Below, one piece after another: positions 4,192 through 63,762 of a stretch of 64,000 bases of DNA. The notes below the pieces were generated by a model. It saw only the letters and a list, made by a program, of their open reading frames with translations. It was not told the DNA's origin and searched no databases. Every line of letters begins with the position of its first letter. Positions within the stretch are counted from its first letter, which is position 1. The position numbers were made by a program, and so were the translations under genes. The DNA is from a bacterium (GTDB taxonomy: Bacteria > Patescibacteriota > Minisyncoccia > Phycocordibacterales > UBA1550): NCBI GenBank assembly GCA_030649835.1, contig JAUSES010000060.1, positions 6,411 through 70,410 of the forward strand, read 5' to 3'.

Positions 4192-4461
4192 TCACTTATT
4201 CAAATATTGATCTTCGCCCGGAATTGATAATATTTTACCCGGGCTATGATGCCCCGAGATAATTCGTATTTGTTTTGAGTCGATTCTAAAATGAAGCGCT
4301 ACTAGCTCGAGAATTCGTCTGTTTGCTAGGTTTTGCAGAGCTGGCTCCTTTACCGACACAAAGAAGGAGTCTTTTGCGCTTTGCACAAATGTTTCCTTTT
4401 TCGCTCCAGCGGTTACTCGGACTCTGATATACATGTTTGTTATTTGTTCCCCCTGTCTCAA
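4192..4461 (-). CDS. DUF167/YggU family protein (UPF0235).
   Basis: 'IRVRVTAGAKKE...VKEPALQNLANRRILELVA...IISGHHSPGKIL' is typical of DUF167. Confidence 0.75.
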   Translation of the reverse strand: MRQGEQITNMYIRVRVTAGAKKETFVQSAKDSFFVSVKEPALQNLANRRILELVALHFRIDSKQIRIISGHHSPGKILSIPGEDQYLNK

Positions 4462-4468
4462 ATATTCC

Positions 4469-8935: not shown

Positions 8936-9647
8936 TCTTCAGCATAAGCAATATTTCCACTGAGGCGGTTTTATCAGTTGAGCCAAACAAAAATTCCTTC
9001 TTTGGAACCTTGCCCTCGAAATTGCTTGGCTTGCGGAAGTGGTCCAAGAATACAACAGCGACACCTTTATCTTTGAGGACTTTGAGGCGGTTGAAGAAAG
9101 TTCTAATTTCATCTGCTTTTTCCTCCTTAATTCCACCCGACACTGCCCTAAAAGTATCTAGAAAAACAACTTTTATTTCGTAATACTCAATAACATTTAG
9201 AAGCCACTGCACCCCTTCGTTCGTATTGAGATTTAATTCTGTATCACTGTAAACTAAAATCTTTTTATTGCTCTCGTCAAAGCCTAGCTGTCTTCCTCTG
9301 CGCTGTGCCTCACTCTGAGACATTTCCATGTCAACATACAGAACATTGGACGCTTCGGTTTTGAACTCCTCGCGTCCAAGAAAATCAATTCCAAGGGCAA
9401 TACATCTAGCCATATCCATCGCAAGCCAGGTTTTCTTTTCTCCTGTAACAGAGGCTAGGATGACAAAACCTTCGCAAGGGATTAGGCCCTGAACCAACCA
9501 CCTTCTCTCTGGGAATTTTTTATTTCCTAGAGTTGTCCAGCTCATCGGCTCAAAGAACGGCTTCTCAATCTCTCTATCAATCTCCCTCATTTCTGAGCTT
9601 TCATTCCTTTCCTCCGCAAACTCCTTAAATGTTTTCTCTTCGTTCAT
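8811..9647 (-). CDS. RecA-like ATPase of the AAA_25 / RepA-like family, a probable mobile-element replication or mobilisation protein.
   Basis: 'GFVILASVTGEKKTWLAMDMARCIALG' is a P-loop of the RepA/AAA_25 type. 'VVFLDTFR' and 'VVFLDHFRK' are Walker B-like strands. Confidence 0.7.
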   Translation of the reverse strand: MNEEKTFKEFAEERNESSEMREIDREIEKPFFEPMSWTTLGNKKFPERRWLVQGLIPCEGFVILASVTGEKKTWLAMDMARCIALGIDFLGREEFKTEASNVLYVDMEMSQSEAQRRGRQLGFDESNKKILVYSDTELNLNTNEGVQWLLNVIEYYEIKVVFLDTFRAVSGGIKEEKADEIRTFFNRLKVLKDKGVAVVFLDHFRKPSNFEGKVPKKEFLFGSTDKTASVEILLMLKSEPGGEEDRHIPAKESPYEGNRPLQGDYKRPGRVRWGSNDS

Positions 9648-9870
9648 AACTTTTAGGCAATGTTATTTTATTAATATCAAGACTGCTTGTCACCGCCCCA
9701 ATAAGGCAAACAAGATTTTCGAAATACTCAAAAGCTTGTGCATCAGAGATGACCGTTTTGTTCTTAGCTTCGTAAAGCTCCTTGAATTTTTTGAGATAAG
9801 TATTTTTATCAACCATAAAATAAAACCCACTATTGAGGACCTGACTTCGCCTAGAAAGTCGGGACCTCAA
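9625..9870 (-). CDS. Hypothetical small protein.
   Basis: 81-aa ORF that heads the minus-strand island operon. Confidence 0.3.
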   Translation of the reverse strand: MRSRLSRRSQVLNSGFYFMVDKNTYLKKFKELYEAKNKTVISDAQAFEYFENLVCLIGAVTSSLDINKITLPKSYERRENI

Positions 9871-9892
9871 TAGTGGGTTCCTCTAGGCGAGC
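9835..9892 (-). terminator. Imperfect 22-bp hairpin followed by a U-tract (minus sense), a probable terminator after ORF 9981..10733.
   Basis: aacccactattgaggacctgac...gtcgggacctcaatagtgggtt is an inverted repeat. It is followed on the minus strand by 'tttattttat'. Confidence 0.5.
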
Positions 9893-10733: not shown

Positions 10734-10939
10734 TACAACTGAATAGCAGTCGGCCTAACCCTTAGGAGTTTAAATGCTTAAGGTATGGTTGCGCAAATCC
10801 CATGGAAGGTACTGAACCCCGCGTTCAGCGACTCTTCCATGGGTCATATCGGGAAACTGGTATGTGGACGCAAGTCCTAGCTGGCGCGGGGTTCTGTGTT
10901 TATACCCCACGCTAGCTATATTATTGGCTAGCTATTTTT

Positions 10940-13301: not shown

Positions 13302-14063
13302 ATGCTTGGCGCAATTATTGGTGATTTTGTGGGGTCATACTATGAGTTTAACGCGGTCAAAACAAAAGACTTCGACCTTTTCCCCGTGGGCTCGAAATTT
13401 ACCGACGATACTATTCTTACCCTCGCTACAGCACACGCTATTCTAAATAAAGAAGATTACGGTAAATCTTACAAAAACTTTTTTTGGCAATACCCACTTA
13501 AAAACTACGGCGAGCGATTTTACGCATGGGGCAAAAGAGACGACTCTGAGCCATACAATAGTTTTGGTAACGGGTCTGCGATGAGGGTAGCTCCTGTCGG
13601 GTGGGCTTTCAATATCATTGAGCAGGTTCTTGAGGAGGCAAAGAAGAGCGCTGAAGTGACCCATAATCACCCAGAGGGGATAAAAGGCGCTCAAGCCGTA
13701 GCAAGCGCAATATTCCTCGCAAGAACTGGGGCAAGCAAAAAAACAATCAAGGAATACATAGAATTAAATTTTGAGTACGACCTAGATCGTTCCGTGGATG
13801 AGATACGGGAAACGGCCGTCTTTAACGAGACGTGTATGATAAGCGTTCCCGAGGCGATTATTTGTTTCCTTGATTCTGAATCATTTGAAGATGCCCTACG
13901 AAATGCAGTTTCTCTTGGGGCAGATGCTGACACCCAGGCATGCATCGCCGGAGCAATAGCAGAAGCATTTTACAAAGAGATACCGGATTTTATACGAGAG
14001 GAGGTATTGAAGCGCTTACCTAAGAAATTCCATGGGATGATTGATGAAATACTCACTGCATAA
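13302..14063 (+). CDS. ADP-ribosylglycohydrolase family protein (DraG/ARH-like).
   Basis: N-terminal 'GAIIGDFVGSYYEF', mid 'GNGSAMRVAPVG' and C-terminal 'GADADTQACIAGAIAEAF' match the binuclear-Mg ARH signature. Confidence 0.85.
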   Translation: MLGAIIGDFVGSYYEFNAVKTKDFDLFPVGSKFTDDTILTLATAHAILNKEDYGKSYKNFFWQYPLKNYGERFYAWGKRDDSEPYNSFGNGSAMRVAPVGWAFNIIEQVLEEAKKSAEVTHNHPEGIKGAQAVASAIFLARTGASKKTIKEYIELNFEYDLDRSVDEIRETAVFNETCMISVPEAIICFLDSESFEDALRNAVSLGADADTQACIAGAIAEAFYKEIPDFIREEVLKRLPKKFHGMIDEILTA

Positions 14064-14167
14064 GAAACGCTTCCAAATATCTCCCGTTTCCATGTGCTGA
14101 TTCTGCGCGATCAACCAGAATTCTGTAATTTTTTATTTCCATTTTTTAAATATAAATATGATGTACC

Positions 14168-16561
14168 CTACAGGCGAACTTGCTCTTGTACGTCTAGTTG
14201 AATCAGTTCTTGGAATTCATTCAATGTAATTACTTCCTCTCTAAAATTATCTGAATCAGATAAATCTCTTACCGTTAAAATAAAGGCGTAGGGTTGATTT
14301 TCTAAGTTTTCTTTTCCAAGAATTTTACTTTCATAAGATTGTGTTGCAGACAACTGTAAAAGTACCTCTAGCACAGTAGATGGTACTTTTTTCTTTATTT
14401 TTTTAAAATGAATCACATTGTGATTTGGGTTCCTGTAATGGTCCCATGTTGGAGTCTGGTTTAGAGACAGTGCTTTATTTTTTTCTTCAACCTCACCATT
14501 TTCATCAAGGATTGGGACCAAGAACCGAACTGCTGGTTCAACACTCATCATCTTATATTCTTTTGGGTAATTTTTATCAACGGGAGGGTTATAAGCAAGA
14601 GTGAATATAAACTCTACCTTTTTACCCAAGATACTTTCTGGGAGCTGTATTTGTAATTTGTGTTTCCTCTCAACGTAATTAATCTTATCTGCATACATTA
14701 ATGTTAGTTCATTTTCATTATCCTTTAAAGCAAGCTTGTGGTCGGGGACTCCAAAACCATATGCTCGTTTTATATGGTCATCCTCGATTTTTACTTGTGG
14801 AGCTTTTGCGGTTGAATGAATCAAAAGTGCCTTAACGAGATTAAGTTTATTGTTCTCTAAATCAACATAATCTGATGCTTTCGCTTTCTTTATAAAATCT
14901 AACAAAAACGCACATTATCTAGTGATTAAAGGCGCACTTAGGCTAGTGCCAATGTCTTTGTTGAGGCCATCCTTATTTATGCTCTCAACGCCAAAAACCT
15001 GATTTGAGGATATCATGTGAGCATTTCCATAACCAAAGCTTGGGTCTTTTTTTACATTACCTCCATTAGCAACCAATTCTGGTTTCTTAATATCTTTAGC
15101 GACACTGGAAGTACGCGTAAAAGGGGCTGGGAACCCTTGCTCAACATTTACACAACTAGCGTCAGCCTTACCCGAAATTGAGCCAACTGAAATTACATTA
15201 AGAGCATCACTTGGTGATGCAATAAGAGATTTTTCTTGTTTAAAAATAGTATTGTAATTTTCACTAGCGTAAACTTGATGGTTACCGACAGAACAAACAA
15301 ATATCACATCGTACTCCCTAGCTATATTATCCAAGAATTCGGTCAATTCACTCACGTCGTCTTTGTCTATCGGTTCATTTTCATTAATAGAGAGATTATA
15401 TATTGAAATATCTTCATACCTATTTACAACCTCAGAAATTGCACCCTTTAGTTCATCAAGGGAGACGCATTTTGAATCACTACCATCCAAATACAATACT
15501 TGTATGTCTAGAATATTACATGTTGGAGCAATAGAACCACCCCCTGTTAATTGCATAAAGAAGTTGTCACCAAACAAAATTCGGCTGGCCACAATAGTAC
15601 CGTGGTTCTTGTCCTCGACCTGATGTCGAGACAAATAATTATGGTGATGAGCCCTAAGCTGTTGGAGTATTGGATTATATATACCACTATCAATGAGACC
15701 CACTCTTTCTGCTGTTAGTGGAGCAAGGAGATTCAGTGCCCCAAGATTAATCTCTGGGATACACCTCTGTGAACTCAAAATTGGTTGCTCTCTTATTTTG
15801 CCGATAAAATTAAAATCTGCATCACTTAAAATACCAATAATTTCATTTGCTGTAAGGGTCGCCAAGAATGATATGTTACTAAAAAATAAGTTTATATTTC
15901 TCTTTTTCAATTTTCCACGAAAAACAAGTTGATCGTTCAAAGAATCAAAGAGTGTGTCGTATTTATCTTTGCCAATATTTGGGTAAATCTCAATAATGCA
16001 ATCAATTGTTTGATTTAAAATATTGCCATGAATAAGTGAGTAGATATAATTACTTACCCGGCCCTCAATGATTGTATTACGGTCTGTGACTGCCGACATG
16101 GCATACAATTCACGCAACAGATTCTTGTCTTTTTTTCTTGGTAAATCCTCCCCTGTGAGGGCAGCATCAAATGAGCCGCTATTGCTTATACTAACCAAAC
16201 GGTCAAAATCCTCTATTTTCCCACTAACGATAAATGTTTTGTCGTTTTTAGAACCAACAATTTCAAGCCCCGTCTCATTCCACACATCAGCAGGACTGTT
16301 AGATTTTGAGTTTGCCAGCTCATCTAATTCGACTTCGACATACAGTAATTTCCCGGCAGTTTTTGCTTCCGATTTTATTTTTTTAACAGTTGTATCAATC
16401 TGCCTTACGCGCTTTGAAAACACTCTGGCGTAATGTTCGCGGGTATCATCAGTAATTTTCTTTTCCCAAAACGACTTCCAAAAATCAGAACCTCCTCCAG
16501 GCTTTTTACCTTTATTTATCTTCTTTTTGGGTACAACAATTGAAAAGTTCATATATTTCAT
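14168..16561 (-). pseudogene. ietS: Subtilase (peptidase S8), IetS-like. It is split into ORFs 14915..16561 and 14168..14905 by a single in-frame TAA at 14915..14917.
   Basis: The Asp motif 'VGLIDSGI', the His motif 'NHGTIVASR' and the Ser motif 'GTSLSAPLITR*' are present. The downstream ORF is in the same frame and continues with a subtilase-like C-terminus ('LVKALLIHS', 'AYGFGVPD'). Confidence 0.6.
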
Positions 16562-17661
16562 TTTATATTGTCACGAAGCGTAGTGTACGCAATACCAGAA
16601 ACTTCAGATATGTCAATTAAATTGAAACTGCTATCTTTTAACACTTGCGCAATTTCATAAAGATTCTTTTTGTTAAGCCTCTGTTTTGATGTTAATTGGT
16701 GATTAAAAGAAATAATATGTTTTAAGCAAAAAATATTATCTAAGCTTATACCCTCTATTACCGATGCTCTTTTTATGTTTTGGCATATATCATTAATTAA
16801 AGAACCATTTAAACCAACAGTGACTCTTGCCATTAAATTATAGTCTAATGATTTATTTTTATTAAAATCACTTAAAAACAACTCAAACAATAGAGCCCTC
16901 GATTCCTCTTCTGGGGTATTAATTTCTAACCTTAGCCCGAATCGTCTCCATAGTGCCTTGTCCAACAACTCATCATGATTTGTTGCTCCAATTAGAATTG
17001 AAGTCACTGGGAATAAGTCAATATTTTGAAGTAACACAGTAACTACTCTCTTTAATTCCCCCAACTCCCTTGCATCATCTCGATGTTTAGCTACTGTATC
17101 AATTTCGTCAAAAAAGATGACTACTCGCTCCCTTTTTGCAATTTCAAAAACCTCGCTAATGTTTTTCCCTGTTTTACCTAAATACGATGAGACTAGTTCA
17201 TCTAATTTGACAATAATAAGTGGGAGGTTCAATTTATTCGCAAGAGCATAAGCTAATCTTGTTTTCCCTGTACCAGGTGGTCCATAGAAAAGAATTTTGT
17301 TTATAGGGGAAATATTATTTTTAAGTAACTTATCAAAAGCTTCCCAATGCTTTATAAACTCAATTATGGTTGTCCTTGTATTTGGATTAAGGACAACAGA
17401 ATCTAATTCGATGTTTGAGTAAATTTTTTCAAAAAGAGTATCGTTATTGTTTAGATTTATATTCCTAGAAGTTAACGACTGCCCAGATAAGGAATGCCCC
17501 CTAGACACATCTTTAATCAGATTTGACAATCTTTTGGCAACTAATATTTTTCCGTTAGCTCTTTGTTTTTTTATCTCCTTTTCTAGGACAGAAACAACCT
17601 CCTCGTTTTTACCTGAGGAAAAAGCCTTTACGATATCTTCTACGATATTTATAGTTGCCAT
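16558..17661 (-). CDS. ietA: AAA+ ATPase, IetA-like partner of the subtilase.
   Basis: Walker A 'GPPGTGKT', Walker B 'VIFFDEIDTV' and the classic AAA sensor region are present. Its stop overlaps the start of the S8 gene (ATGA). Confidence 0.8.
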   Translation of the reverse strand: MATINIVEDIVKAFSSGKNEEVVSVLEKEIKKQRANGKILVAKRLSNLIKDVSRGHSLSGQSLTSRNINLNNNDTLFEKIYSNIELDSVVLNPNTRTTIIEFIKHWEAFDKLLKNNISPINKILFYGPPGTGKTRLAYALANKLNLPLIIVKLDELVSSYLGKTGKNISEVFEIAKRERVVIFFDEIDTVAKHRDDARELGELKRVVTVLLQNIDLFPVTSILIGATNHDELLDKALWRRFGLRLEINTPEEESRALLFELFLSDFNKNKSLDYNLMARVTVGLNGSLINDICQNIKRASVIEGISLDNIFCLKHIISFNHQLTSKQRLNKKNLYEIAQVLKDSSFNLIDISEVSGIAYTTLRDNIK

Positions 17662-19786: not shown

Positions 19787-19912
19787 TCCGCGCGTGTAGG
19801 GATCGAAGGGATTTTCGGTTTACGCTCGTAGCAACGAGTGCCGAAAATCCCCGTTTTCAATTTCAGTGAGTGGCGACGAACTGAAATTGAAAAAGATACC
19901 CCTACCCGCAAA
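19787..19912. repeat. Fourth copy of the structured element family: an outer 'gtaggg/ccctac' stem enclosing two hairpins. It is a possible small RNA or tRNA-derived repeat.
   Basis: tgtagggatcgaa | gggattttcgg..ccgaaaatccc | ttcaatttcag..ctgaaattgaa | gatacccctacccgc. It is homologous in layout to 18097..18205. Confidence 0.4.
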
Positions 19913-19938
19913 ACCTACAATATTTTCCAAAGAAAAAA

Positions 19939-19962
19939 GGTTGCCACGAGTGGCAACCTTTT
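19939..19962. terminator. Bidirectional hairpin terminator (ggttgccac-gag-tggcaacc), A/T-flanked.
   Basis: Perfect 9-bp stem, with 'aaaaaa' on the 5' side and 'tttt' on the 3' side. It is 20 nt beyond the stop of the minus-strand ORF 19983..20846. Confidence 0.6.
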
Positions 19963-19982
19963 AAATTAATTCAAATACCTAT

Positions 19983-20846
19983 TTACTTAATTGCCTCCAA
20001 ACAAAATGTTCCTTGTGGAGTACAGCGTTTTGGACCATCGAAGAATTTGAAGGCTACGTCAGGCACAGGATATTTGGTCTCTGTTTCATGAACGATATTG
20101 CCATCAAACATCCTGCCACACACCTCATGCGCTTTTTCGAGCGATCCTTGAATATCTTTGCAGGCATCATATTCAACTTTAAGCGCCGCTAATTTATCGC
20201 TAAAGTCTTTTATCCGCGCCACGAGCCTATTATATTTTTCGAAGTATTTGAGCCCCGCTTGATGTATTGCGTTTGCTTCACGATCGCTTTTTTCACCAAT
20301 CTGATTGAGGGTGTCAATGTTTTTAATCAACCGATCTCGGTTTGTATCGATTTCTCCCTTCCACGAATTTACCTTTTCGACAAGCGGATCTAAACGAGCT
20401 TTCTCGATCTGGCACCAATTGTATCTATTCTGATCAACAGTGCCATGGCAAACTCCATTATAAGAATCCGCTTGACCGTTTACGTTTTTTGCAAAGTCAT
20501 TTTGACTTATAATATTATCCTCATGCTTTGTATTCTCCTGCTCAAATGTAGCCCACGCATTGAAAAGAAGGTCTGCTGTCGCAAGCTGGTGTGCTTGTTT
20601 TCCTTCTAAAACTACGCCTTCTTTGTTTGCGATTTTTAAATCCCGAACAGTGCTACGAATAGAGCCAATATATAAGCTGGCTTTTGCATCCCGCGCGTGG
20701 CCTGTGTTTTCATCTGCTGGCACACCACTTGCCCCGCCCTCTGCGTGCGCAAATGCCGTCAGTGCCATCATTAAAACCAAAGTGATATACGTTTTCATTT
20801 TGAACTCCTTATGTTGAATATCTATTAAACCTACAGGCGAAATCAT
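19983..20846 (-). CDS. Secreted hypothetical protein (signal peptide). The probable start is the Met at 20798.
   Basis: 'MKTYITLVLMMALTAFAHA' is a Sec signal. The rest is Cys-containing and coiled-coil-like. Confidence 0.6.
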   Translation of the reverse strand: MISPVGLIDIQHKEFKMKTYITLVLMMALTAFAHAEGGASGVPADENTGHARDAKASLYIGSIRSTVRDLKIANKEGVVLEGKQAHQLATADLLFNAWATFEQENTKHEDNIISQNDFAKNVNGQADSYNGVCHGTVDQNRYNWCQIEKARLDPLVEKVNSWKGEIDTNRDRLIKNIDTLNQIGEKSDREANAIHQAGLKYFEKYNRLVARIKDFSDKLAALKVEYDACKDIQGSLEKAHEVCGRMFDGNIVHETETKYPVPDVAFKFFDGPKRCTPQGTFCLEAIK

Positions 20847-20889
20847 TTTACTCTGCAGGTATTCCTGACCTCAAAAAAATGATGCAAGT

Positions 20890-21243
20890 TTAATCAATCC
20901 ATATACGCCGTTCATCCAAAAAACATAAATCACTACGCGAAACCAACCTTCTTGCCTCTTCGCAATCAAGCCTTGAGGAAAAAGGGCCGCGAGTAGTGCC
21001 CACCTTGTAATAATAGGAAATAAAGTACCAATCTTCCCTTACTGGTTGAGCTGGTCTCACTTCTTTAAATATTAGTGGTACTGGCTTTTGTGTTTCCACT
21101 ACTACTGGCGCTTTTTCTATACCACATAGGGTGCAGGTGAGATCTGGCTTTAAGGTAAGTGGCAGTGGTGCCTCTGCAAAAGCGCCCGAAGTAATCAGCA
21201 AAGCGAAAAGCGAAACCAGCAACATAGCGCGTATTTTTCTCAT
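20890..21243 (-). CDS. Small secreted protein.
   Basis: Signal peptide 'MLLVSLFALLITSGAFA'. The ORF is 117 aa. Confidence 0.5.
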   Translation of the reverse strand: MRKIRAMLLVSLFALLITSGAFAEAPLPLTLKPDLTCTLCGIEKAPVVVETQKPVPLIFKEVRPAQPVREDWYFISYYYKVGTTRGPFSSRLDCEEARRLVSRSDLCFLDERRIWID

Positions 21244-24396: not shown

Positions 24397-24476
24397 GCAC
24401 AGAAGTTTTTAAAGAACTTTAATGCTTTAAATTACTTCGTCCGAGACACCACTCTGATTGCCTGCGTCTCTTATAA

Positions 24477-24532
24477 AACTGGGGGTATGCAGTGTGAAAG
24501 ATAATATCTTTCACACTGCATACCCCCAGTTT
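24477..24532. terminator. Long perfect hairpin (about 24-bp arms) plus T-tract, a bidirectional terminator.
   Basis: ctgggggtatgcagtgtgaaagat-aat-atctttcacactgcatacccccag followed by tttt. It lies between convergent ORFs. Confidence 0.65.
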
Positions 24533-24610
24533 TATTAGCCGTCAAACCATACCATGATGGAGCGACACCTTTTGTTGCAGAAAAATTAGATTAATTTTTG
24601 CCTTTTAGAT

Positions 24611-35619: not shown

Positions 35620-35963
35620 TTTATTTTAATTACTTGACCCCCACACCTATCTTCGCATTATTCTGCTTTCACATGATTATTCATACTCATCAAAAAATCT
35701 TAATTTCTCCAGAAAACCTTATAATTACTATGTAGCACAACAAAAGCTCCGCGAGGATAGGTGTGGGGGTTGACTTTTTTGAGGGGTTATGCTAGACTTG
35801 AGTCACAAAAGTAGTAGGAAGGGTTGGGCTAAATAATTTTGCTCGCAAAATTATCGCCCGAACATTTGTAACCAAATGTTTTAGGGGGGAAGAGTCGATT
35901 TTCTCAAACTAGTCTGTAGCTATATTTTTGTATATTAGTAGATTAAGTAAATAAAAAGATTTT

Positions 35964-45632: not shown

Positions 45633-46172
45633 CTAATTTGTAATCTCGCTCCACACCGCAGACGTTACTTCGCCATTGCCCGCGACTCCATTGTCTAAAG
45701 TGACACTGACACTGAGGGACCTTTTGCTTCCTTTCATAATACCTTTTGCTGTAATAATTTTTGGGTCACCAGTAATCCCAGATCCTGCGCTCACAGAAAC
45801 TTTTGCACAGTCGTTATTTAATGCGCATCCATTTGCGCTAAAATCAATAGTATAACAATCAGCGCTAGCGCATGTATAATTTTTGTTACGCGCTATTCGG
45901 ATAAGTGCGTCTCGAGCACCAGCTTCTGCATAAAATTGCGCGCGGGAGGATTGTGCTCCTCCTTGAGATACAAAAAGCTCCGTAAGCGAAAGCGTGGTGA
46001 TGCTCACAGTAACAACAAGCGCGAGCACTCCTAAAATCATCACTGTTGGTAATGTTGCCACTCCACGGGAAAAACGAGGGGGAACGAGGGGGAACGAGGG
46101 GGAACGAAAGAACACAAAAAAGATGCGGTCGCGGTTTGATTTTTTTATGAAATTTTTTTTGTCCATGGTCAT
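45633..46172 (-). CDS. PilX-like / minor pilin-like protein.
   Basis: 'SRG|VATLPTVMILGVLALVVTV' is a prepilin-like hydrophobic N-terminus. The leader is Pro/Ser-rich ('SPSFPLVPPRFSRG') and is encoded by 'gggggaacga' repeats. Confidence 0.5.
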   Translation of the reverse strand: MTMDKKNFIKKSNRDRIFFVFFRSPSFPLVPPRFSRGVATLPTVMILGVLALVVTVSITTLSLTELFVSQGGAQSSRAQFYAEAGARDALIRIARNKNYTCASADCYTIDFSANGCALNNDCAKVSVSAGSGITGDPKIITAKGIMKGSKRSLSVSVTLDNGVAGNGEVTSAVWSEITN

Positions 46173-46208: not shown

Positions 46209-46790
46209 TTATCTAAGTGTTATGGTTGTTCGCGATGTGTCAGAATATGTCCAGTCAGTACTTGACGCATTATAGCGCATTGTCATTTCAATGAGTACCG
46301 CTGTTGTGGTGGCATTTAGAATAGAATTATAATTTTCAAAACGAGTAAACACGGGCATTTCCGCCCACACGCTACTTCCGTTTATTGGCTCAGGGGTGCC
46401 CGCGTTTACCGTACGGCGAAGTACTCCACCTACAACGTCGTACATAACTATGTTTCCTGAAACAGTAACACTCAAAGTACTCGCAGGTGTTCCAAGGAGT
46501 GGTGTTGTTACGGTCTGTGCGTTTTTAATATCCTGCTTGATAACCTGATTAGCAAAACGTACTGCACTATTGACCTCGCTCCGCGCTTCTGACTGTCCAC
46601 GACCTTTTGCGAGTGAAATGAAGGCATTTGCTACAATCACTACCAACACAGAGAGAATAGCAACGTAAATTAGGAGTTCAAGTAGCGAGACCCCTCTCTG
46701 GGGAGAATGGGGAATGGAGAATGGGGAATTTTCATTCTCTATTTTCTTTTCTCCACTATTCATTCCTATTTTAGATGTTTTGTATTTCAT
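46209..46790 (-). CDS. Prepilin-type N-terminal cleavage/methylation domain protein (minor pilin/pseudopilin).
   Basis: '...SPFSIPHSPQRG|VSLLELLIYVAILSVLVVIV' is a class III signal with Glu at +5. Confidence 0.65.
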   Translation of the reverse strand: MKYKTSKIGMNSGEKKIENENSPFSIPHSPQRGVSLLELLIYVAILSVLVVIVANAFISLAKGRGQSEARSEVNSAVRFANQVIKQDIKNAQTVTTPLLGTPASTLSVTVSGNIVMYDVVGGVLRRTVNAGTPEPINGSSVWAEMPVFTRFENYNSILNATTTAVLIEMTMRYNASSTDWTYSDTSRTTITLR

Positions 46791-46878
46791 ATTTATTGTT
46801 TCCCTTCCCCCATCTGCCCATTCCCTCCCTTTCCCCCTCTCTCCCCATTCACCATTCTCTCTTCCTTTCCCTGTATTT

Positions 46879-54221: not shown

Positions 54222-54890
54222 TTAACTCTGAAGTTCTAGTGTTGTACCACTCGTATTTATGTTTCCGTCCTGCGCTTCATACGTGTTGTTAGAGCAGGTT
54301 TTTACACCCGTTGCCACACCACCTGACCAATCAGCTTGATTACAAATCTTATTCTTCCACCGAAATAAATAATTATTTATCGTAAGAGGGCTCCCCGCGC
54401 CCTGCCACGAAACCACCACGGACACCTTCTGTGTACTCGGGTCATTAAAATAATTATTTACTGGTGTACAGATAGTACTGCTTGCGATACTTCTACTACT
54501 ATCATTGCACCTGCTTACATTGTCTACAATAAAATACCGCGTGTAACTCGCATTGTTAAGCAAGATTGTCTCATCACCAGATGTAACGGTTAGGAGGCCA
54601 CTAGAGGGTGCCGTTTTATAATGTGTGATTCCCTTCCCTGTTAGGTTATAGATATTCTGCCACTTTTCATCGGCTACTGCGCGCACCGCTTCCAGTGTTT
54701 CATTTGCAAGGCCCATCGCTACGTCATTTTCACCAGAGGTTTTTCCACTTTGCATGCTTACATACACTGCCTGAGAACCAATAGACAAAATAATCGCAAG
54801 GATGGATATCGCCACAAGTAGCTCCAAAAGAAGAGCTCCACGAACGAGGGAGTAACGAGGGATGGGGAATGGGGAATGTTTATTTCTCAT
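54222..54890 (-). CDS. Pseudopilin / minor pilin (prepilin-type N-terminus).
   Basis: 'MRNKHSPFPIPRYSLVRG|ALLLELLVAISILAIIL' has an 18-aa leader that ends in Gly, with Glu at +5. Confidence 0.7.
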   Translation of the reverse strand: MRNKHSPFPIPRYSLVRGALLLELLVAISILAIILSIGSQAVYVSMQSGKTSGENDVAMGLANETLEAVRAVADEKWQNIYNLTGKGITHYKTAPSSGLLTVTSGDETILLNNASYTRYFIVDNVSRCNDSSRSIASSTICTPVNNYFNDPSTQKVSVVVSWQGAGSPLTINNYLFRWKNKICNQADWSGGVATGVKTCSNNTYEAQDGNINTSGTTLELQS

Positions 54891-54891
54891 G

Positions 54892-55515
54892 CTAGTTTAT
54901 TGTACCGATACTTGAAATGGTTATGGTCTCCATTGTGTTCCCTGACAAGATGCTAATTGTGGTTGAAGTTGTCGTGCCGGAAATTCTCGAAAAAATAATA
55001 TCCTTACTCGTTCCTGCGCTCGGGTCAGAAAACGTCACTCCACTTGAAAGTGTTGTTGTTCCTGTTATTGTTCCTCCTGCATACCCGGTAGCTGTTGAAA
55101 AAATCTCATAGTAGTGGGGCCCGCCGTTTGTGTTAACTACGTGCACTCCCCACTTTAGTTCCGCCTCCCCCGACATAGATTTAGAGCGCATATGCTTTAA
55201 ATCACTGGCAATTGCTCTCGAAACGGACTGAACTTCTATCTTCGTTACAGCGCCATGATAAAAACCCGATCCCGCAGCTCCTAAAATAGCTACAATAGCA
55301 ACAACAATAAGGAGCTCCAAGAGGCTAAAACCACGGGGGGAACGAGTGGGAACGAGTGGGAACGAGGGGGAACGAGAATGCACATTTGGGACAGAGAGAA
55401 CAGTGGGGACAGAAACGCACAGTCGCTCCGTGACTGTGCGTTTCTTTTGTCCCCCGGTTCTTACCGTTCCCCTTGTGTATTTTTCGTTCCCCCCGTTGTT
55501 GTTCTTTATAATCAT
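54892..55515 (-). CDS. Pseudopilin / minor pilin. The likely true start is the in-frame GTG at 55383, giving the leader MHSRSPSFPLVPTRSPRG.
   Basis: 'RSPRG|FSLLELLIVVAIVAILGAAG'. The 5' part of the annotated ORF lies inside a palindromic G-rich repeat. Confidence 0.7.
   Translation of the reverse strand: MIIKNNNGGNEKYTRGTVRTGGQKKRTVTERLCVSVPTVLSVPNVHSRSPSFPLVPTRSPRGFSLLELLIVVAIVAILGAAGSGFYHGAVTKIEVQSVSRAIASDLKHMRSKSMSGEAELKWGVHVVNTNGGPHYYEIFSTATGYAGGTITGTTTLSSGVTFSDPSAGTSKDIIFSRISGTTTSTTISILSGNTMETITISSIGTIN
55322..55510. repeat. Imperfect palindromic repeat element. It has 'gggaacgag' tandem repeats, a central hairpin (gaaacgcacagtc..gactgtgcgtttc) and 'cgttcccc' repeats.
   Basis: Left arm 'ggggggaacgagtgggaacgagtgggaacgagggggaacgag'. 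Centre hairpin at 55412..55444. The right arm is the approximate reverse complement. Confidence 0.55.
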
Positions 55516-55517
55516 GA

Positions 55518-55904
55518 TTATTTTTTTGGAGTCCGTAAAATCGAATTACGAAAAGAGATTAGTTGATGAGCAAGAAACTCCGCATTTTTAAGCAATTCAT
55601 TGTGTTCATCTATGGAAAAATACTTACTATCAAAAGCAACATCGAAGCAAGCAACAACCTCGTTAAGCGAAGTATGTGCTATGTTCAAAAAATGAGCAAA
55701 ATCCTTATCTGTCCCTCTGTCAGCCCCCTCTGCAATATTAAGCAATACAGAATCGAGTGCACGACATAATTGCTGTTGTAAAGAAAATTGTTCACGTTTA
55801 GGAAATTTTGCATAGGATATCTTTTTTGCAGAGGAAATAAAAGCTCGCACATCTGCGTATACAGGAAATTCTCGGAACCTAAATATTCTATGCGTGTTTG
55901 TCAT
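55518..55904 (-). CDS. Four-helix-bundle protein (23S rRNA intervening-sequence protein family).
   Basis: 'LNIAEGADR...FAHFLNIAHTSLNEV' matches the family signature. Confidence 0.75.
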   Translation of the reverse strand: MTNTHRIFRFREFPVYADVRAFISSAKKISYAKFPKREQFSLQQQLCRALDSVLLNIAEGADRGTDKDFAHFLNIAHTSLNEVVACFDVAFDSKYFSIDEHNELLKNAEFLAHQLISFRNSILRTPKK

Positions 55905-55924
55905 TTTTTATAGTATCCTAACTC

Positions 55925-56035
55925 TTTAGTCCTTTATGTTCTATCGTTCCCCCTCCTTCCCCTTGTGGGTTACTGTCCCAAGTGTGCATTTCTGTTCCCC
56001 CTGTTCCCCTCGTCCCAAACGTTCCTTCCCTCCCC
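55925..56035. repeat. Half-copy (C-rich arm) of the same palindromic repeat family.
   Basis: Its reverse complement reads 'ggggaacagggggaacagaaatgcacacttgggacag', which matches 59860..59925. Confidence 0.5.
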
Positions 56036-58977: not shown

Positions 58978-59118
58978 AAATAGTATACTCCTGAGCCTTA
59001 CTTTTTCATAGTATATACTATGAAAAAGTAAGGCTCAGGAGTATAAGGAGATTTTAATATGCAAAACAAAAGCGCCTCGCGGCGCTTTTGTTTTGTGAAC
59101 TACTAATCGAGAGATTGA

Positions 59119-59658
59119 CTAGAGTGCTAGATTTGTTCCCACCTCATAGCGAGTGTCGTCAGTTCCGCCATCCGTTGCATTTAACATACGTGGGCTATAT
59201 TCAGAACTTTCAAGTACTGCGCTAACCTCAAAGGTTTTAGCAGTATTGTTACACTTATAAGCGTATCCCATTGCGCCGCTGTTTACTGGATCAACAGGAA
59301 GACTTGAGATTGGAGATCCACTTGTAAGGGAGTTAAGATTGATTGGTAACCAACCCGTTCCGTCTGTAAGCACGCTTAGGGTCGTTGTGCTACTGCTCCA
59401 TGGAGCACAAGCGACATCTGTATTCCCATTCATCCATGGTGTAGATGTACTTGTAAGGTAGAGTCCAAGCGCAGTCTTGATAGTATTCAAATCAGAAATA
59501 CGCTGAGTGTCGCGAGATTTCTTCAGAGTTTCCGCTGGGTTCAAGATGAGCACGAGTGCGACTGATAAAATTGCGATGATCGAAATAACGATCAAAAGTT
59601 CAAGGAGAGTAAAGCCCTTTGCGTGACCTGCTCCTTTTTTCATATTCATTGAAATCAT
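59119..59658 (-). CDS. pilA: Type IVa major pilin (PilA-like).
   Basis: 'MKKGAGHAKG|FTLLELLIVISIIAILSVALV' is a class III signal. The size is pilin-like and there are C-terminal Cys residues. Confidence 0.85.
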   Translation of the reverse strand: MISMNMKKGAGHAKGFTLLELLIVISIIAILSVALVLILNPAETLKKSRDTQRISDLNTIKTALGLYLTSTSTPWMNGNTDVACAPWSSSTTTLSVLTDGTGWLPINLNSLTSGSPISSLPVDPVNSGAMGYAYKCNNTAKTFEVSAVLESSEYSPRMLNATDGGTDDTRYEVGTNLAL

Positions 59659-59710
59659 ATTCTTTAAAAATTAATTAATTACTACCACAATATTATACCA
59701 AGGTGTTTCG

Positions 59711-60015
59711 GGAAAAGGAAATAGGGCTGTGGATAACTCGGAAGGGGGAACGGGGGTGCACAGGGGGAACGTTTGGGACAATGGCCCACAAGGGGAACGC
59801 GTGGGGACTTGGGAGGGGCACACACGGGACAGGAACCCACAAGGGGAACGAGGACTCACTGAGGGAACAGGGATACACATTGGGGACAGGGGGAACGGAA
59901 ATGCACACTTGGGACGGGGGGAACAAATAACGCACAGTCGCGTAGCGTCTGTGCGTTATTCGTTCCCCCTGTTCCCCCTGTCCCAAGTGTGCCCCTCCCA
60001 AGTTCCCTCTGTTCT
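59711..60015. repeat. Large imperfect palindrome of about 300 nt built from 'ggggaacg'-cored repeats with about 27-nt period, then a central hairpin (59926..59960), then the C-rich mirror arm. It sits upstream of pilA.
   Basis: 'gggggaacg' recurs at least seven times at roughly regular spacing. The centre is 'aataacgcacagtcgcgtagcgtctgtgcgttatt'. The mirror arm is 'cgttccccctgttccccctgtccc...'. Confidence 0.6.
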
Positions 60016-60022
60016 CGCGTTG

Positions 60023-60397
60023 CTACGCGAGATACCCCTTTACCTTATCTATAATCTCCTGTATTGGGTAGTCCACCTTTACCAGATATTCCTTTGCGCC
60101 AAGTGCGAGCGCGCGGTCCTGGTCCACCTGTTGCCCTAGGTTCGAAAGAACGACGACAGGAATATTGGCAATATCAGGGTTTTTTTGAAGGTCTTCAAGT
60201 ACGCTAAATCCATCCTTTTTGGGGAGCATGATATCAAGGAGAATGAGATCTGGTCTTTCACTAATAATTTTTGGAATCGCTTCCTCCCCACTACGCACAA
60301 GACACGAGGCTATCCCCTCTTTGGCAAACTTAATTTCATACACCTTTGAAATATGCTCATCGTCCTCCACTATTAAAACTTTTTTCATGATGTCCAT
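60023..60397 (-). CDS. Single-domain response regulator (CheY-like receiver).
   Basis: 'VLIVEDDE', 'LILLDIMLP' and 'VVVLSN...K' are receiver motifs. Confidence 0.85.
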   Translation of the reverse strand: MDIMKKVLIVEDDEHISKVYEIKFAKEGIASCLVRSGEEAIPKIISERPDLILLDIMLPKKDGFSVLEDLQKNPDIANIPVVVLSNLGQQVDQDRALALGAKEYLVKVDYPIQEIIDKVKGYLA

Positions 60398-60403
60398 AAA
60401 ATA

Positions 60404-60787
60404 TTATGCGTAACTCAGCATCTTGTCTGCAAGTGTATTAATATCGTAGTCGCTTTTTACCAAATAATCAACAACGCCAAGTTCAAGTGCAGTACCTTTT
60501 GATTCTTCTCCCCCCGAGACGGAGCAAATAGCTACCTTCAAATCCCTATACTCTTCATTTTTGCGAACCTTCTCAAGAAACTCTATTCCATTCATCCCAG
60601 GAAGAAGGAGGTCGAGCCACACAATATCTATATGAGGATGCTCAGAATCAAGCACACGAAGTGCGTCCTCCGCGCGCATTGTTGATATAACGCGATGACC
60701 CTTTTGCTCAAGTTTAAGCACAATAGCGTGATTGAGCGCAATATCGTCTTCTAGGAGAAGGACTGTCTTTGGAAATTGTTCATTCAT
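60404..60787 (-). CDS. Single-domain response regulator (CheY-like receiver).
   Basis: 'VLLLEDDIAL', 'IVWLDLLLPGMNG' and 'VAICS' are receiver motifs. Confidence 0.85.
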   Translation of the reverse strand: MNEQFPKTVLLLEDDIALNHAIVLKLEQKGHRVISTMRAEDALRVLDSEHPHIDIVWLDLLLPGMNGIEFLEKVRKNEEYRDLKVAICSVSGGEESKGTALELGVVDYLVKSDYDINTLADKMLSYA

Positions 60788-60860
60788 ATTCTGAAATTAC
60801 TTTAACTATAGTAACATTCCTATCGCGTTATGCAACCTTGTAGTGAACCCCCACACCTAC

Positions 60861-61118
60861 TTATCTATTGCAGACATTCAGCGACACGTTTTTAAGCTGA
60901 GAAAGCGCGCGACCATCTCTCTTAAGCGACGCTTCTCTTTTGCGAGCATCGCTCTCACTTATATATGCTTCATAATATCTAATTTCAAATGGTCGCCTAC
61001 TCATTGTAGATTGTACTTTACCAGAATTATGGTCTGCAAGTCTGCGTCGTAAATCATTAGTAGAACCGATGTACAAAAGTTCATCTTTTCGACTTTTTAG
61101 TACATATAGGTAATACAT
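60861..61118 (-). CDS. GIY-YIG nuclease-domain protein (small, stand-alone).
   Basis: 'YYLYVLKSRKDELLYIGSTNDLRRRLADH' matches the GIY-YIG signature. Confidence 0.8.
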   Translation of the reverse strand: MYYLYVLKSRKDELLYIGSTNDLRRRLADHNSGKVQSTMSRRPFEIRYYEAYISESDARKREASLKRDGRALSQLKNVSLNVCNR

Positions 61119-61121
61119 TTT

Positions 61122-63566
61122 TTACGACGATAGATAAGTAGGTGTGGAGGTGAACGGCACGGTAAAGAAGAATGTCGTTCCCTTACCCTCCTCGCTTTCA
61201 AACCATACTCTTCCACCCCACGAGTCCACGAGATCCTTCACGAGTGCCAATCCGAGCCCTGTGCCGTCGGGGATTTGCGCGCGCGCATTCTCTGCACGGA
61301 AAAATTTGGAAAAAATGCGAGAGCGTTGTGCTTCAGGGATACCGATACCATTGTCACTCACAGATACCACTGCTTCCTTTCCGCTGTCTTCCACCCACCA
61401 TTTTATCTCGATTATACCATCCTTGTTTGTATACGAAATAGCATTTGAGATTAAATTGAGAATAACCTGACGCAAAATAATTGAGTCTAGCCAGACAACT
61501 ACAGGATCTCTCTCCGGTGGCGATACCTTTAAAGTAAGCTTTTTATCCTCAAGTTGTGGTCCAATCTCTTTAGCAACTTCGCTTGTAAACATACTCATAT
61601 CTATCGGTGTTCTATCTGCTTTAATTTTTCCACTCTCAATGCGCGAAATTCCCAGAAGTAGGTCCACTGTCTGATACAAACGTTCTGCCCCCCCATGGAT
61701 TTCCTTCATAAAATCCCTTTGTGAATCGTTGAGCGTCCCCGCATCCTCGGACAAAAGCATTTCCGAATACCAACGAATAGAGGTAAGGGGGGTACGAAGC
61801 TGATGCGATGCCACTGAAATAAACCCTGACTTTGCTTCATCGAGCGCATAATCTCCCGCGATATCACGAATAACAATAACTGCACCGTGAAATCTCCCAC
61901 TAAGTGGTGCGATCGAAAGCGCTACAGGAAGCTCTGCTTCTCGTCCATCTGTCGTAATACAAAAGCTATCCTCAAGAGATGTCGTAACCGCTCGCTTGGT
62001 ACGAAACATTTCCTCAGTTGGCCAATCCTTTACATCAAGAATTTCCTTCTTTTTGAAAAACTTTACAACACTACGCAGGTCTCTCCCCGCAAGCTCCTCC
62101 TCTTTCATTGCAAATATTTCAAGTGCTTTTGTGTTTACTAGAACGATTTTATATTCCGGATCAATGAGTACAAGTCCGTCCCCAATAGAGGAAAGAATTG
62201 TTTGCAGTTTCGTTCCCTCCTCCTCAAGCCTCTCCTTTGCCTTCCATGAATCCTCAAGGAGGTTTAAGGTTGCGATCTTTGATTCTTCGAGGAACCTCTC
62301 TTGTTCCTCATGCGCGTGAATATCTTTTTCGAGAGCCAGTGCTTTCTCTTCAATCTCTGCTTTAGACTTCACGAGCTCACCTTGTGTTGTGCGAATGGAC
62401 TGCACCATTGTGTTAAACATTCCTGCGAGCTTTCCTATTTCGTCCTTTGTGTGCACTATTGCCTGTGCGGTGAGATCCCCTTTCATCACGCGCTCGAGAG
62501 CTGATACAACTTCCTCAATACGTTTAAGTGGAAGTCGTACAAAAAATATTATTATAAATATTCCAAAAATCAGTACTATCTCACCGGTAAAAATAGTTGT
62601 TCGAGCAAGGGATGCAAGCGCCGAGAAGGCTTCTTCTTTGCTTACCTCAACAAGAAGGACTAGATCATCAGACGCGAGACATCGCGAAACGCCAAAAACC
62701 CGAATTCCATGATAATCATCGTATTCCATACTTGTGTCAATGCCTTTTTCCAAGCATTCACGTACTGGAGGGACGTCAGCTTTCTGCTTTTTGTTTATGT
62801 CAGCAATATGCCGAGATGGGGTAACGATTAACTTATGACTATTTACTATATATATGTCTGAGGTCTTATAATTTGTATTGAGCACACTTCTTGATAATCC
62901 GACTTCTTTATTTTTAATTTCCCCAGAAATTGTTTCAGCTATTTCGTTGATACTCAAAAAATGTATTAGAAGAACTGCATCCAATGGTACAAATTTACCC
63001 GAAGCGCTCGTTTTAAAAAAACGTGCAGTTACGTGAACCATAGGCTCTGTCGACTCGTCTGTCTCAAAAACAATGCTTCTTACAAATGTCTCTCCAAAAT
63101 TGGCTCCAATTGTTTTGCTAAAATAGTGCGCCTTTAACTCTACTTCTTCCTTGAGCTCGTCAGTTCCTAGACGTTCTGGTCGAGTGGATGCAATAACTAT
63201 TCCATTCTTGTCGAGAATCTCCGCCATCATAACCGACTTATCATACGGTATTCTTTTTTCTATAATATGTTTAGCAAAATCGCTTTCTGCTGTCTTGCGT
63301 GCAGTGCTTCCCTCTTTTGTCTCTAGAAGTCTTGTTACAACATCCTGTAGTGTCGCAGAAGCTGTCCATTCGAGCGCCTCTCTACGGAGTGACTTCAAAA
63401 ATGTATAGTAGGATCCCTCGGCCTGACCAGCACTAATACGGAGAGTATCTGTAATCTGACTCTTAAATGCTACGCTCACAACATGCTGTGCATAAAAAAC
63501 AACCACAAATACGGTAACGAGAAGAAATGATCCAAAAAATATAATCGCCTTTGTACGAAGTTTCAT
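61122..63566 (-). CDS. Sensor histidine kinase (TM helix, extracellular sensor, HAMP, PAS, HisKA, HATPase_c).
   Basis: 'HQLRTPLTSI' is the H-box. 'DNGIGIP' and 'GTGLGLALVK' are the G1 and G2 boxes. A PAS-like region precedes them. Confidence 0.85.
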   Translation of the reverse strand: MKLRTKAIIFFGSFLLVTVFVVVFYAQHVVSVAFKSQITDTLRISAGQAEGSYYTFLKSLRREALEWTASATLQDVVTRLLETKEGSTARKTAESDFAKHIIEKRIPYDKSVMMAEILDKNGIVIASTRPERLGTDELKEEVELKAHYFSKTIGANFGETFVRSIVFETDESTEPMVHVTARFFKTSASGKFVPLDAVLLIHFLSINEIAETISGEIKNKEVGLSRSVLNTNYKTSDIYIVNSHKLIVTPSRHIADINKKQKADVPPVRECLEKGIDTSMEYDDYHGIRVFGVSRCLASDDLVLLVEVSKEEAFSALASLARTTIFTGEIVLIFGIFIIIFFVRLPLKRIEEVVSALERVMKGDLTAQAIVHTKDEIGKLAGMFNTMVQSIRTTQGELVKSKAEIEEKALALEKDIHAHEEQERFLEESKIATLNLLEDSWKAKERLEEEGTKLQTILSSIGDGLVLIDPEYKIVLVNTKALEIFAMKEEELAGRDLRSVVKFFKKKEILDVKDWPTEEMFRTKRAVTTSLEDSFCITTDGREAELPVALSIAPLSGRFHGAVIVIRDIAGDYALDEAKSGFISVASHQLRTPLTSIRWYSEMLLSEDAGTLNDSQRDFMKEIHGGAERLYQTVDLLLGISRIESGKIKADRTPIDMSMFTSEVAKEIGPQLEDKKLTLKVSPPERDPVVVWLDSIILRQVILNLISNAISYTNKDGIIEIKWWVEDSGKEAVVSVSDNGIGIPEAQRSRIFSKFFRAENARAQIPDGTGLGLALVKDLVDSWGGRVWFESEEGKGTTFFFTVPFTSTPTYLSS

Positions 63567-63762
63567 TTAGTTAGAATGTAGGATATGGAATTTAGAATTT
63601 AGGAACAGGGCTGGTGGGCCTTCGGCAACTAGCCTCCACACTCCATTTTATTGTAGCATGCGTTTCTGAAACTTGATATACTTAAATGATAGGATTTAGT
63701 AGATAGAAATTTGAATATAGGAAAATCAGATTCAGGATCCTAAATTCTATATTCTATATTCC

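Follow-up and report, generated by a model that had tools for sequence, protein, structure and literature searches.

The pilus cluster and the palindrome upstream of pilA

The stretch analysed here, 64,000 nt of contig JAUSES010000060.1 (GenBank assembly GCA_030649835.1, positions 6,411 to 70,410), referred to below as the window, carries a type IV pilus cluster between 45.6 and 63.6 kb, every gene of which lies on the minus strand. The cluster comprises, in order, a histidine kinase gene (61122-63566), a small GIY-YIG gene, two receiver genes (60404-60787 and 60023-60397), an asymmetric imperfect palindrome that spans 59743-60012, pilA, pilB, pilC and a PF05635 gene, past which lie four pilin-like genes with large accessory proteins. 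The homologues of its PilB put the organism in the Parcubacteria/Paceibacteria, near Candidatus Yonathbacteria. The palindrome, which is the subject of this report, is best explained as a local and unusually expanded copy of a family of palindromic modules, composed of a unique GC-rich hairpin and inverted arms of short G-rich units (GGGGAAC / AAATGCACA).

The element is placed as an earlier note on this DNA had it, between the receiver genes and pilA. The stop codon of the CheY-like receiver-only gene RR2 (60023-60397, minus strand) abuts it, and the start codon of pilA, the major-pilin candidate (59119-59658, minus strand; PF07963, E = 2.3e-7; leader MISMNMKKGAGHAKG, with the cleavage site before FTLLELL), is located 85 nt beyond it. 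Both receivers, of 124 and 127 aa, match PF00072 alone and have no output or DNA-binding domain.

Three parts make up the palindrome: a 183-nt G-rich arm (59743-59925, plus strand; C-rich on the transcribed minus strand), a 35-nt central GC-rich hairpin (59926-59960) that resembles a terminator on both strands, and a 52-nt C-rich arm (59961-60012, plus strand; G-rich on the strand that is transcribed), which mirrors parts of the long arm. The earlier note had reported a G-rich imperfect palindrome of roughly 300 nt, which is real and much as described, with some corrections to its parts. Instead of at least seven 'ggggaacg' units at a period of 25-30 nt, the plus strand of the element contains five exact GGGGAACG, six GGGGAAC and seven GGGAAC, together with GGGGAC and GGGGCAC variants. 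The autocorrelation of 59743-59925 does peak at lag 28 (0.497), with a second maximum at lag 19 (0.463; 95% null maximum 0.434), so that the periodicity is composite: GGGRAC units and a recurring module, GGGGGAAC-N2-5-AAATGCACA, are arranged in 19- and 28-nt super-periods, with a G-tract sub-spacing of about 7-20 nt. In the window as a whole GGGGAAC occurs 22 times against 4.6 expected, a count that none of 100 shuffles attained. The central hairpin, said to be perfect, is so in its 12-bp outer stem (AATAACGCACAG/CTGTGCGTTATT), and its inner 3-bp CGC/GCG stem has one mismatch; the string quoted for it corresponds to 59930-59956 of the 35 nt. The mirror-image arm is present, though much shorter than its partner, and pairs with two separate stretches of the 183-nt arm (inverted repeats I1, I3 and I4). 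The array is not a CRISPR, as the note had also concluded: its units are degenerate and irregularly spaced (5-22 nt), and an inverted arm comes after them. At the receiver edge a small additional hairpin, CTCGCG-TTGCTA-CGCGAG (60014-60031), holds the receiver TAG stop codon (60023-60025) in its loop and is also found in one relative (L133, see below).

Folding predictions agree with a very long imperfect hairpin in either direction of transcription: the minus strand of the element folds at -159.7 kcal/mol (z = -9.2 against shuffled controls) and the plus strand at -165.1 kcal/mol (z = -9.6). An assembly artefact is an unlikely source of the structure, because the arms are imperfect and unequal and a homologous element occupies the same site in the independent assembly of another species (L134). 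A Logan contig from the same sample, identical over 11.7 kb, ends at the centre of another palindrome (59013) and neither confirms nor contradicts the element. That other palindrome is perfect, 62 nt long and without a loop (58984-59045), and is located directly upstream of the pilB start codon, past the canonical terminator of pilA (59065-59092); its centre is the exact break point of the Logan assembly.

The putative pilA promoter region and the same site in relatives

For comparison, the syntenic locus was taken from ten other genomes or strains via PilB (L numbers below). Nine genomes share a promoter-like region between the receiver spacer and pilA, in which an invariant GTTATCCACA box (59728-59737, minus strand, in the window) lies about 30 nt upstream of an extended -10-like sequence (TGGTATAAT or a close variant; in the window TTGGTATAAT, 59692-59701, minus strand, its position conserved in the relatives), which in turn precedes the pilA ATG by about 30 nt. 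The box forms the promoter-side boundary of the element. From this conservation we infer that pilA has its own promoter between the element and its start codon, at a place which a two-hexamer promoter scan did not flag; if this is the promoter used, the element is located outside the pilA leader. The GTTATCCACA box contains the DnaA-box consensus TTATCCACA, of which it is the sole perfect copy in the window and which stands at the same position in L002-L005, L132, L134 and L135-L142; it may serve as a regulator site for pilA. A replication origin with iterons and a DnaA box was considered and rejected: there is one perfect box in 64 kb, the box is kept even where the repeats are absent, and neither gene strand nor GC skew switches at 59.7 kb.

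The position of this region bears on the proposal, made in the earlier note, that the element is an attenuator in the pilA leader or a multi-site binding array for the adjacent response regulators, to which an operator for some other pilus regulator may be added. The many short motifs that stand at regular intervals ahead of a pilin gene would suit such a role. However, the receivers are bare domains that offer nothing to bind DNA with, the units differ wholly among relatives and even among strains with identical PilB, one relative (L142) has the promoter region and no array at all, and in nine genomes the conserved promoter-like region lies downstream of the element. This last point, which the note itself had named as telling against its proposal, comes from comparative inference and not from transcript mapping. 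The element is probably neither an attenuator nor a binding array, and we give operator or attenuator control of any kind very little credence.

Among the nine genomes the spacer from the receiver stop codon to the GTTATCCACA box measures 17-285 nt, the window having the longest, and in eight of them (spacers of 96-285 nt) it holds a strong central GC-rich hairpin. What surrounds this hairpin differs from one genome to the next. In L002 the hairpin is a plain canonical terminator with a U tract, and in L132 a canonical terminator with a U tract sits between inverted heptamer arrays; L003, L004 and L133 carry inverted arms built of other units, e.g. TAGAATA, GAATATT and GACAATT/GTCAAAT, so that with L134 inverted arrays flank the hairpin in five relatives. 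In L142 (8330-8460) the site is empty, with 17 nt from the receiver stop to the box; its locus has few heptamer arrays and short pilin leaders.

The closest counterpart is found in L134, whose arms and hairpin at the same site belong to the GGGGAAC family of the window. This element begins within the last receiver codons, stops at the GTTATCCACA box and folds at -104.9 kcal/mol (z = -8.2). A profile of the arm module matched L134 at 6523-6653, 17352-17407 and 19806-20003 and gave no match in ten other related loci. The central hairpin of the window element is homologous to that of a second window copy (55411-55445, see below) and to L134:6558-6592; over these three sequences its 16 pairs are 93.8% paired and four of them have changed on both sides, a result attained by 6 of 500 shuffles. 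At this locus L134 is no closer to the window than the other relatives are, and its proteins are 46-85% identical to those of the window. A further L134 copy of the family surrounds the start codon of the orthologue of the pilin-like open reading frame (ORF) 45633-46172, with the ATG in the hairpin loop. In all five two-armed cases the orientation on the sense strand is the same, the G arm being 5' and the C arm 3'.

The rate at which these modules change is best seen in six assemblies with identical PilB (L135-L140), which are near-identical over 8.6 kb save for two divergent segments (L136 coordinates 1750-2010 and 4250-4500; a further locus, L141, has an N gap at the first spacer). One segment is the receiver-pilA spacer, for which there are two alleles, of 179 and 223 nt, that do not align with each other, with a canonical terminator in one and TAGAATA arms in the other; the second is a repeat-bearing spacer upstream of pilB, which includes an indel of one 7-nt unit. 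The modules are therefore the fastest-changing DNA of that locus. The alleles are mosaic, L136 and L137 being alike at the first spacer, and at the second L136 grouping with the other strains while L137 alone differs, a pattern that suggests recombination.

Such turnover could mean that the family is a selfish or mutational by-product without function, in which slippage-prone repeats and palindrome-driven template switching pile up wherever they are tolerated, in spacers and in cleavable leader codons. The empty L142 site, the unalignable alleles of closely related strains and the free variation of unit sequences among species are what this would predict, as are the insertions into leader peptides (see below), which prepilin peptidase removes. 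It sits less well with the strong hairpin at the site in eight of nine genomes, with the compensatory changes in that hairpin, with a family consensus kept in two species whose locus proteins have diverged as far as those of L134 and the window, and with an orientation that is constant in five out of five cases. We consider a purely by-product origin a real but minor possibility.

Side by side with the repeats, the pilus clusters of relatives contain genes of mobile-element type, namely Y1_Tnp (IS200/RayT-like), rve integrase and PaaX_M/Cas2-like genes (L134:9137-9796 and 20593-21168; L005:6999-7856 and 9282-9833), and the Y1_Tnp gene is flanked by duplicated promoter-like sequence. In L003 (6505-6625) the pilA promoter itself has received an insertion, a copy of a second inverted-repeat family carrying CCCCCACACCTAC, and the GGTATAC -10 region is duplicated. 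In the window the same family forms a pair (60835-60868 and 61130-61163) on either side of the GIY-YIG gene (85 aa) that separates the kinase gene from the receiver genes, and a further pair (35637-35656 and 35751-35770) in an unrelated spacer. An inverted pair of AT-rich TTAGAAT heptamers (63571-63602 and 63740-63761), the unit type of L004, encloses the divergent spacer that separates the kinase gene from the start of pilM.

Further copies in the pilus cluster and in prepilin leaders

The distribution of the family was assessed over the 64 kb of this genome and 22 kb of L134. In the window GGGRAC clusters are confined to four places, which lie from 46 to 60 kb and within the pilus cluster, and the arm-module profile matches only at 55357-56010 and 59743-60013, with none in the first 45 kb. 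The possibility, raised in the earlier note, of a generic repeat unrelated to pilin loci is thus not borne out, every copy found in the DNA examined lying in a pilus cluster.

The second full palindrome of the window (copy B, 55328-55500, plus strand) matches the inner part of the pilA copy at about 78% identity and shares its central hairpin. It sits in the 5' end of a minor-pilin ORF (54892-55515, minus strand, 207 aa), where its C-rich strand provides leader codons that read HSRSPSFPLVPTRSPRG ahead of FSLLELL. A half-copy with one arm (copy C, 55944-56030, minus strand) follows directly after the pilC stop codon in the opposite orientation. The remaining arrays are also associated with prepilin leaders: 3.5 perfect 10-nt units (AACGAGGGGG; 46073-46107, plus strand) lie in the leader codons of the pilin-like ORF 45633-46172 (minus strand), an inverted pair of related G-rich heptamers (GGGGAAT; 46702-46864) straddles the start codon of the pilin ORF 46209-46790 (minus strand), and a mixed array (54840-54880) is located in the leader of ORF 54222-54890 (minus strand). 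True heptamers are limited, in the window, to 46702-46864 and 54862-54878. Wherever the repeats are coding, it is their C-rich strand that supplies prepilin leader codons (SPSFPLVP, SPFSIP, SPFPIP), just before the cleavage site that follows RG. As called, the leaders of these ORFs have about 18-61 residues, against about 5-20 in the orthologues of some relatives. An exact-cluster look-up of the window's pilins and their neighbours, which form single-member clusters, has no variants in repeat number on record.

The leaders of minor pilins in several relatives contain a second palindromic element, a hairpin CAGATTTTCGC-N3-GCGAAAATCTG conserved across species and paralogues and followed by GTCAGTT-type heptamers, the translation being IFAxRKSAVSCQLSVVSC. 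It was found at L003:13462-13600, L132:20791-21560, L133:21012-21130 and L134:13002-13130 and 14053-14170.

Copy C is about 80% complementary to 55328-55421 of copy B, and the two arms enclose the PF05635/TIGR02436 (Avd-like) four-helix-bundle gene (55518-55904). The position of this gene varies: it stands between pilC and a minor-pilin gene in the window and between pilB and pilC in relatives (L002:11745-12140, L003:11769-12155, L004:11747-12124). Repeat arrays are present on both sides of it in each genome, in inverted orientation where this was checked (the window and L003), and gene and flanking arrays look like a mobile cassette. The arrangement recalls the intervening sequences of 23S rRNA that carry PF05635 ORFs, and Correia elements, and it raises the possibility of an RNase III processing module, whose long stem would be excised from the polycistronic transcript and uncouple the stability of its cistrons, the version enclosing the PF05635 gene being the ORF-bearing form. 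Correia elements in mRNAs are cleaved by RNase III (PMC10969869), and long stems such as those described here are likely substrates. The enclosing arms of the window (55328-55421 and 55944-56028) and the heptamer arrays on both sides of the L002-L004 genes, which were read in detail in L003, speak in its favour. On the other hand, L132-L134 carry arrays and have no PF05635 gene in the locus, the pilA copy is without an ORF, and unlike the rRNA sequences these elements reside in a pilus operon, the window containing no rRNA. RNase III processing is compatible with the data, and we rate its chances as slim.

The arrays also raise the question of pilus variation, either by recombination started at a G-quadruplex (G4), as at Neisseria pilE, or by slipped-strand phase-variation switches. 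At the motif level the likeness to pilE lies in a sequence able to form G4 ahead of a type IV pilin gene, and all five canonical G4 motifs of the window fall in these repeats; those of the pilA element that follow the pattern of four G3+ tracts separated by N1-7 are located at 59744-59777 and 59792-59828, with one on the minus strand at 59965-60007. Minor-pilin leader codons contain units of 10 and 7 nt, lengths not divisible by three, most clearly the 3.5 perfect 10-mers, which as perfect units of this kind within an ORF resemble a contingency locus, and strains of a relative differ by a 7-nt unit. Against this, no silent donor pilin cassettes are present in the window, where PilA matches, by tblastn, only the conserved N-terminal helix of other pilins; unlike at pilE, the G-rich tract runs over hundreds of nucleotides and is largely paired to a C-rich arm; and relatives build the same architecture from AT-rich units unable to form G4. 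A G4 function is therefore possible in the lineage of the window and cannot be the conserved role. The pilA copy is degenerate and stands upstream of the promoter box, where unit number can alter neither a reading frame nor the -35/-10 spacing, which makes phase variation through this copy implausible; the 10- and 7-nt arrays of the leader codons may still permit it. Copy numbers are low (2-4 units), no length variants of the window proteins are on record, and the unit-number variation seen in the relative's population, one 7-nt indel and one whole-allele replacement, is in spacers and not in ORFs. The earlier note's idea of a recombination element affecting pilin expression is kept in this form, shorn of silent cassettes, as an improbable one.

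Proposed termination ahead of pilA and relation to known repeats

On the sense strand of the receiver operon (histidine kinase, receiver, receiver) the central hairpin of the pilA element occupies the terminator position, about 65 nt past the receiver stop codon. It is followed by UUAUUUGUU, a terminator scan flags both strands, and the GC-rich stem-loop downstream of a stop codon is the arrangement expected of an intrinsic terminator. The 3' arm on this strand is 183 nt long, with 43% C and 19% G, of which only about 55 nt are able to pair with the 5' arm. On balance we favour the reading of the element as a lineage-specific, hypervariable palindromic repeat around the receiver-operon terminator, whose function, if it has one, is that of a terminator or insulator. 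Transcription of the receiver operon from the minus strand would allow the G-rich 5' arm, the hairpin and the C-rich 3' arm to fold into a long stem, which could stop or block read-through into the pilA promoter and could protect the 3' end of the upstream mRNA, and the surplus of about 130 nt of C-rich, G-poor RNA might in addition offer a loading site for Rho. The arms would lengthen, shorten and be replaced through slippage and recombination, and the family may also spread within the pilus cluster, including into the cleavable leader codons of minor pilins, where insertions would be tolerated. Termination or insulation ahead of the pilA promoter is the best-supported function because the hairpin at the end of the receiver operon is the invariant feature, the arms being lineage-specific, slippage-prone additions.

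Several observations weigh against this reading. The U tract after the window hairpin (UUAUUUGUU) is weak, and it is weaker still in L133 and L134. The module must be dispensable, since L142 has no hairpin at all at this site. Copy B, with the same hairpin, lies inside an operon and an ORF, where a terminator would seem harmful. The compensatory changes in the palindrome can also come from arm-to-arm correction at the DNA level, and the restriction of the family to pilus clusters is a result for the 64 kb and 22 kb examined. Lastly, two species that are not nearest relatives at the locus have both kept the family consensus, which hints at active spread or a sequence-specific partner, neither of which a plain terminator would explain.

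Such a partner would be part of a dedicated system, in which the pilus locus of this Parcubacteria clade would be served by lineage-specific palindromic modules that mark gene boundaries, are translated in unusually long prepilin leaders and are the fastest-changing DNA of the locus. These modules would tune or switch individual pilins through frame-shifting 7- and 10-nt leader units and hairpins with the start codon in the loop, and would be kept by, e.g., a Y1/RayT-like enzyme or the PF05635 Avd-like protein of the same clusters. Taken as a whole, this combination is unlikely.

Among known elements, the module most resembles interspersed palindromic repeats. SPRITE, of Streptococcus pneumoniae, occur after stop codons as non-coding imperfect palindromes in multiple copies, which form stable stem-loops and are capable of terminating transcription or stabilising mRNA (PMC10969869). 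The pilA family shares with them the imperfect palindrome after a stop codon and the stable stem-loop. REP and BIME of enterobacteria have the same properties as palindromic repeats of the SPRITE type, and the likeness extends to them. The pilA family differs from these in that its arms consist of 7-10-nt units in tandem and surround a unique hairpin, in a foldback-like design, and in that the handful of copies all lie in the pilus cluster; there was no sequence similarity to them, and a tblastn search of the window detected no RayT-like protein. REP and REPIN are 20-40-nt palindromes with hundreds of extragenic copies, against four sites in 64 kb and a module of 150-280 nt here. Copies of the family do not flank the Y1_Tnp gene of the L134 pilus cluster, which scores 28.6 bits for PF01797 and 32 bits, with a cutoff of 80, for the RayT model. 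Nor does the module behave as a miniature inverted-repeat transposable element: its arms are inverted, but its boundaries show no direct duplication when compared with the empty L142 site, and the window contains no transposase.

The G-rich heptamers GGGNATC and GGGGA(C/T)T of Xanthomonas and Nostoc, which are genome-wide, vary greatly among close relatives and are of unknown function (Rehm et al. 2015; PMC4692102), resemble the family, as do the cyanobacterial short tandemly repeated repetitive (STRR) sequences, in their short G-rich units, their G4 potential, inverted pairs that can form stem-loops and their hypervariability. The position and strand described for the heptamers (PMC4692102) recur as well, the sense strand being G-rich directly past the receiver stop and the antisense strand G-rich upstream of pilA. 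Unlike those repeats, the pilA copy is built of 9-10-nt units in 19- and 28-nt modules, not of tandem 7-nt units, around a conserved unique central hairpin, and the family has no copies in window positions 1-45,600. Rickettsia palindromic elements insert in frame into protein-coding genes and add peptide segments (PMC10969869). Copy B and the arrays at 46073 and 54840 in pilin leader codons are like them in this respect; phylum and sequence are different, and the insertions described here are confined to the cleaved leader and spare the mature protein.

Other candidates were rejected. The motif is not dispersed through the window as a DNA-uptake sequence would be. Integron attC cores have the form RYYYAAC/GTTRRRY; on inspection, the GGGGAAC unit does not fit them. 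At gathering thresholds Rfam found only a tRNA and a LOOT RNA in the whole window, elsewhere than the element, and a permissive search of 55.2-60.2 kb returned only sub-threshold microRNA-precursor look-alikes, as for any long hairpin. The LOOT RNA lies at 10752-10878 (73 bits), and three near-perfect intergenic palindromes with 24-34-nt arms, unrelated in sequence to the family, are located outside the pilus cluster (758-813, 9824-9879 and 24470-24538). The core motif GGGAACN5TGCACANTTGGGAC had no match in 185,579 GTDB species genomes; its four matches in JGI metagenomes, all on contigs of 65-69% GC without any other similarity, are put down to chance, and the matches listed for a three-unit pattern in GTDB, among them GC-rich genomes such as Streptomyces, to noise. 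The literature searched gave no description of such repeats in genomes of the Candidate Phyla Radiation.

The element is best filed as an addition to the bacterial interspersed palindromic repeats, one that sits on a terminator and is set apart by foldback-like arms of tandem units around a conserved unique hairpin, by its apparent restriction to the pilus cluster and by its contribution to prepilin leaders. If it is only selfish DNA, it is an ordinary new repeat family; it would gain greater weight if arrays within the leaders turn out to switch the expression of pilins or a dedicated maintenance enzyme exists. For annotation it calls for caution, as long pilin leaders as called may be repeat insertions. 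Type IV pili are central to the attachment, movement and DNA uptake of ultrasmall episymbiotic bacteria, and to our knowledge the regulation of the type IV pili of these bacteria is essentially unknown. A structured repeat family that is found in the pilus locus, and only there within the DNA examined, at a terminator position ahead of the pilA promoter and running into leader codons, provides testable hypotheses for these uncultivated bacteria: insulation, differential expression and possible on/off switching of pilins.

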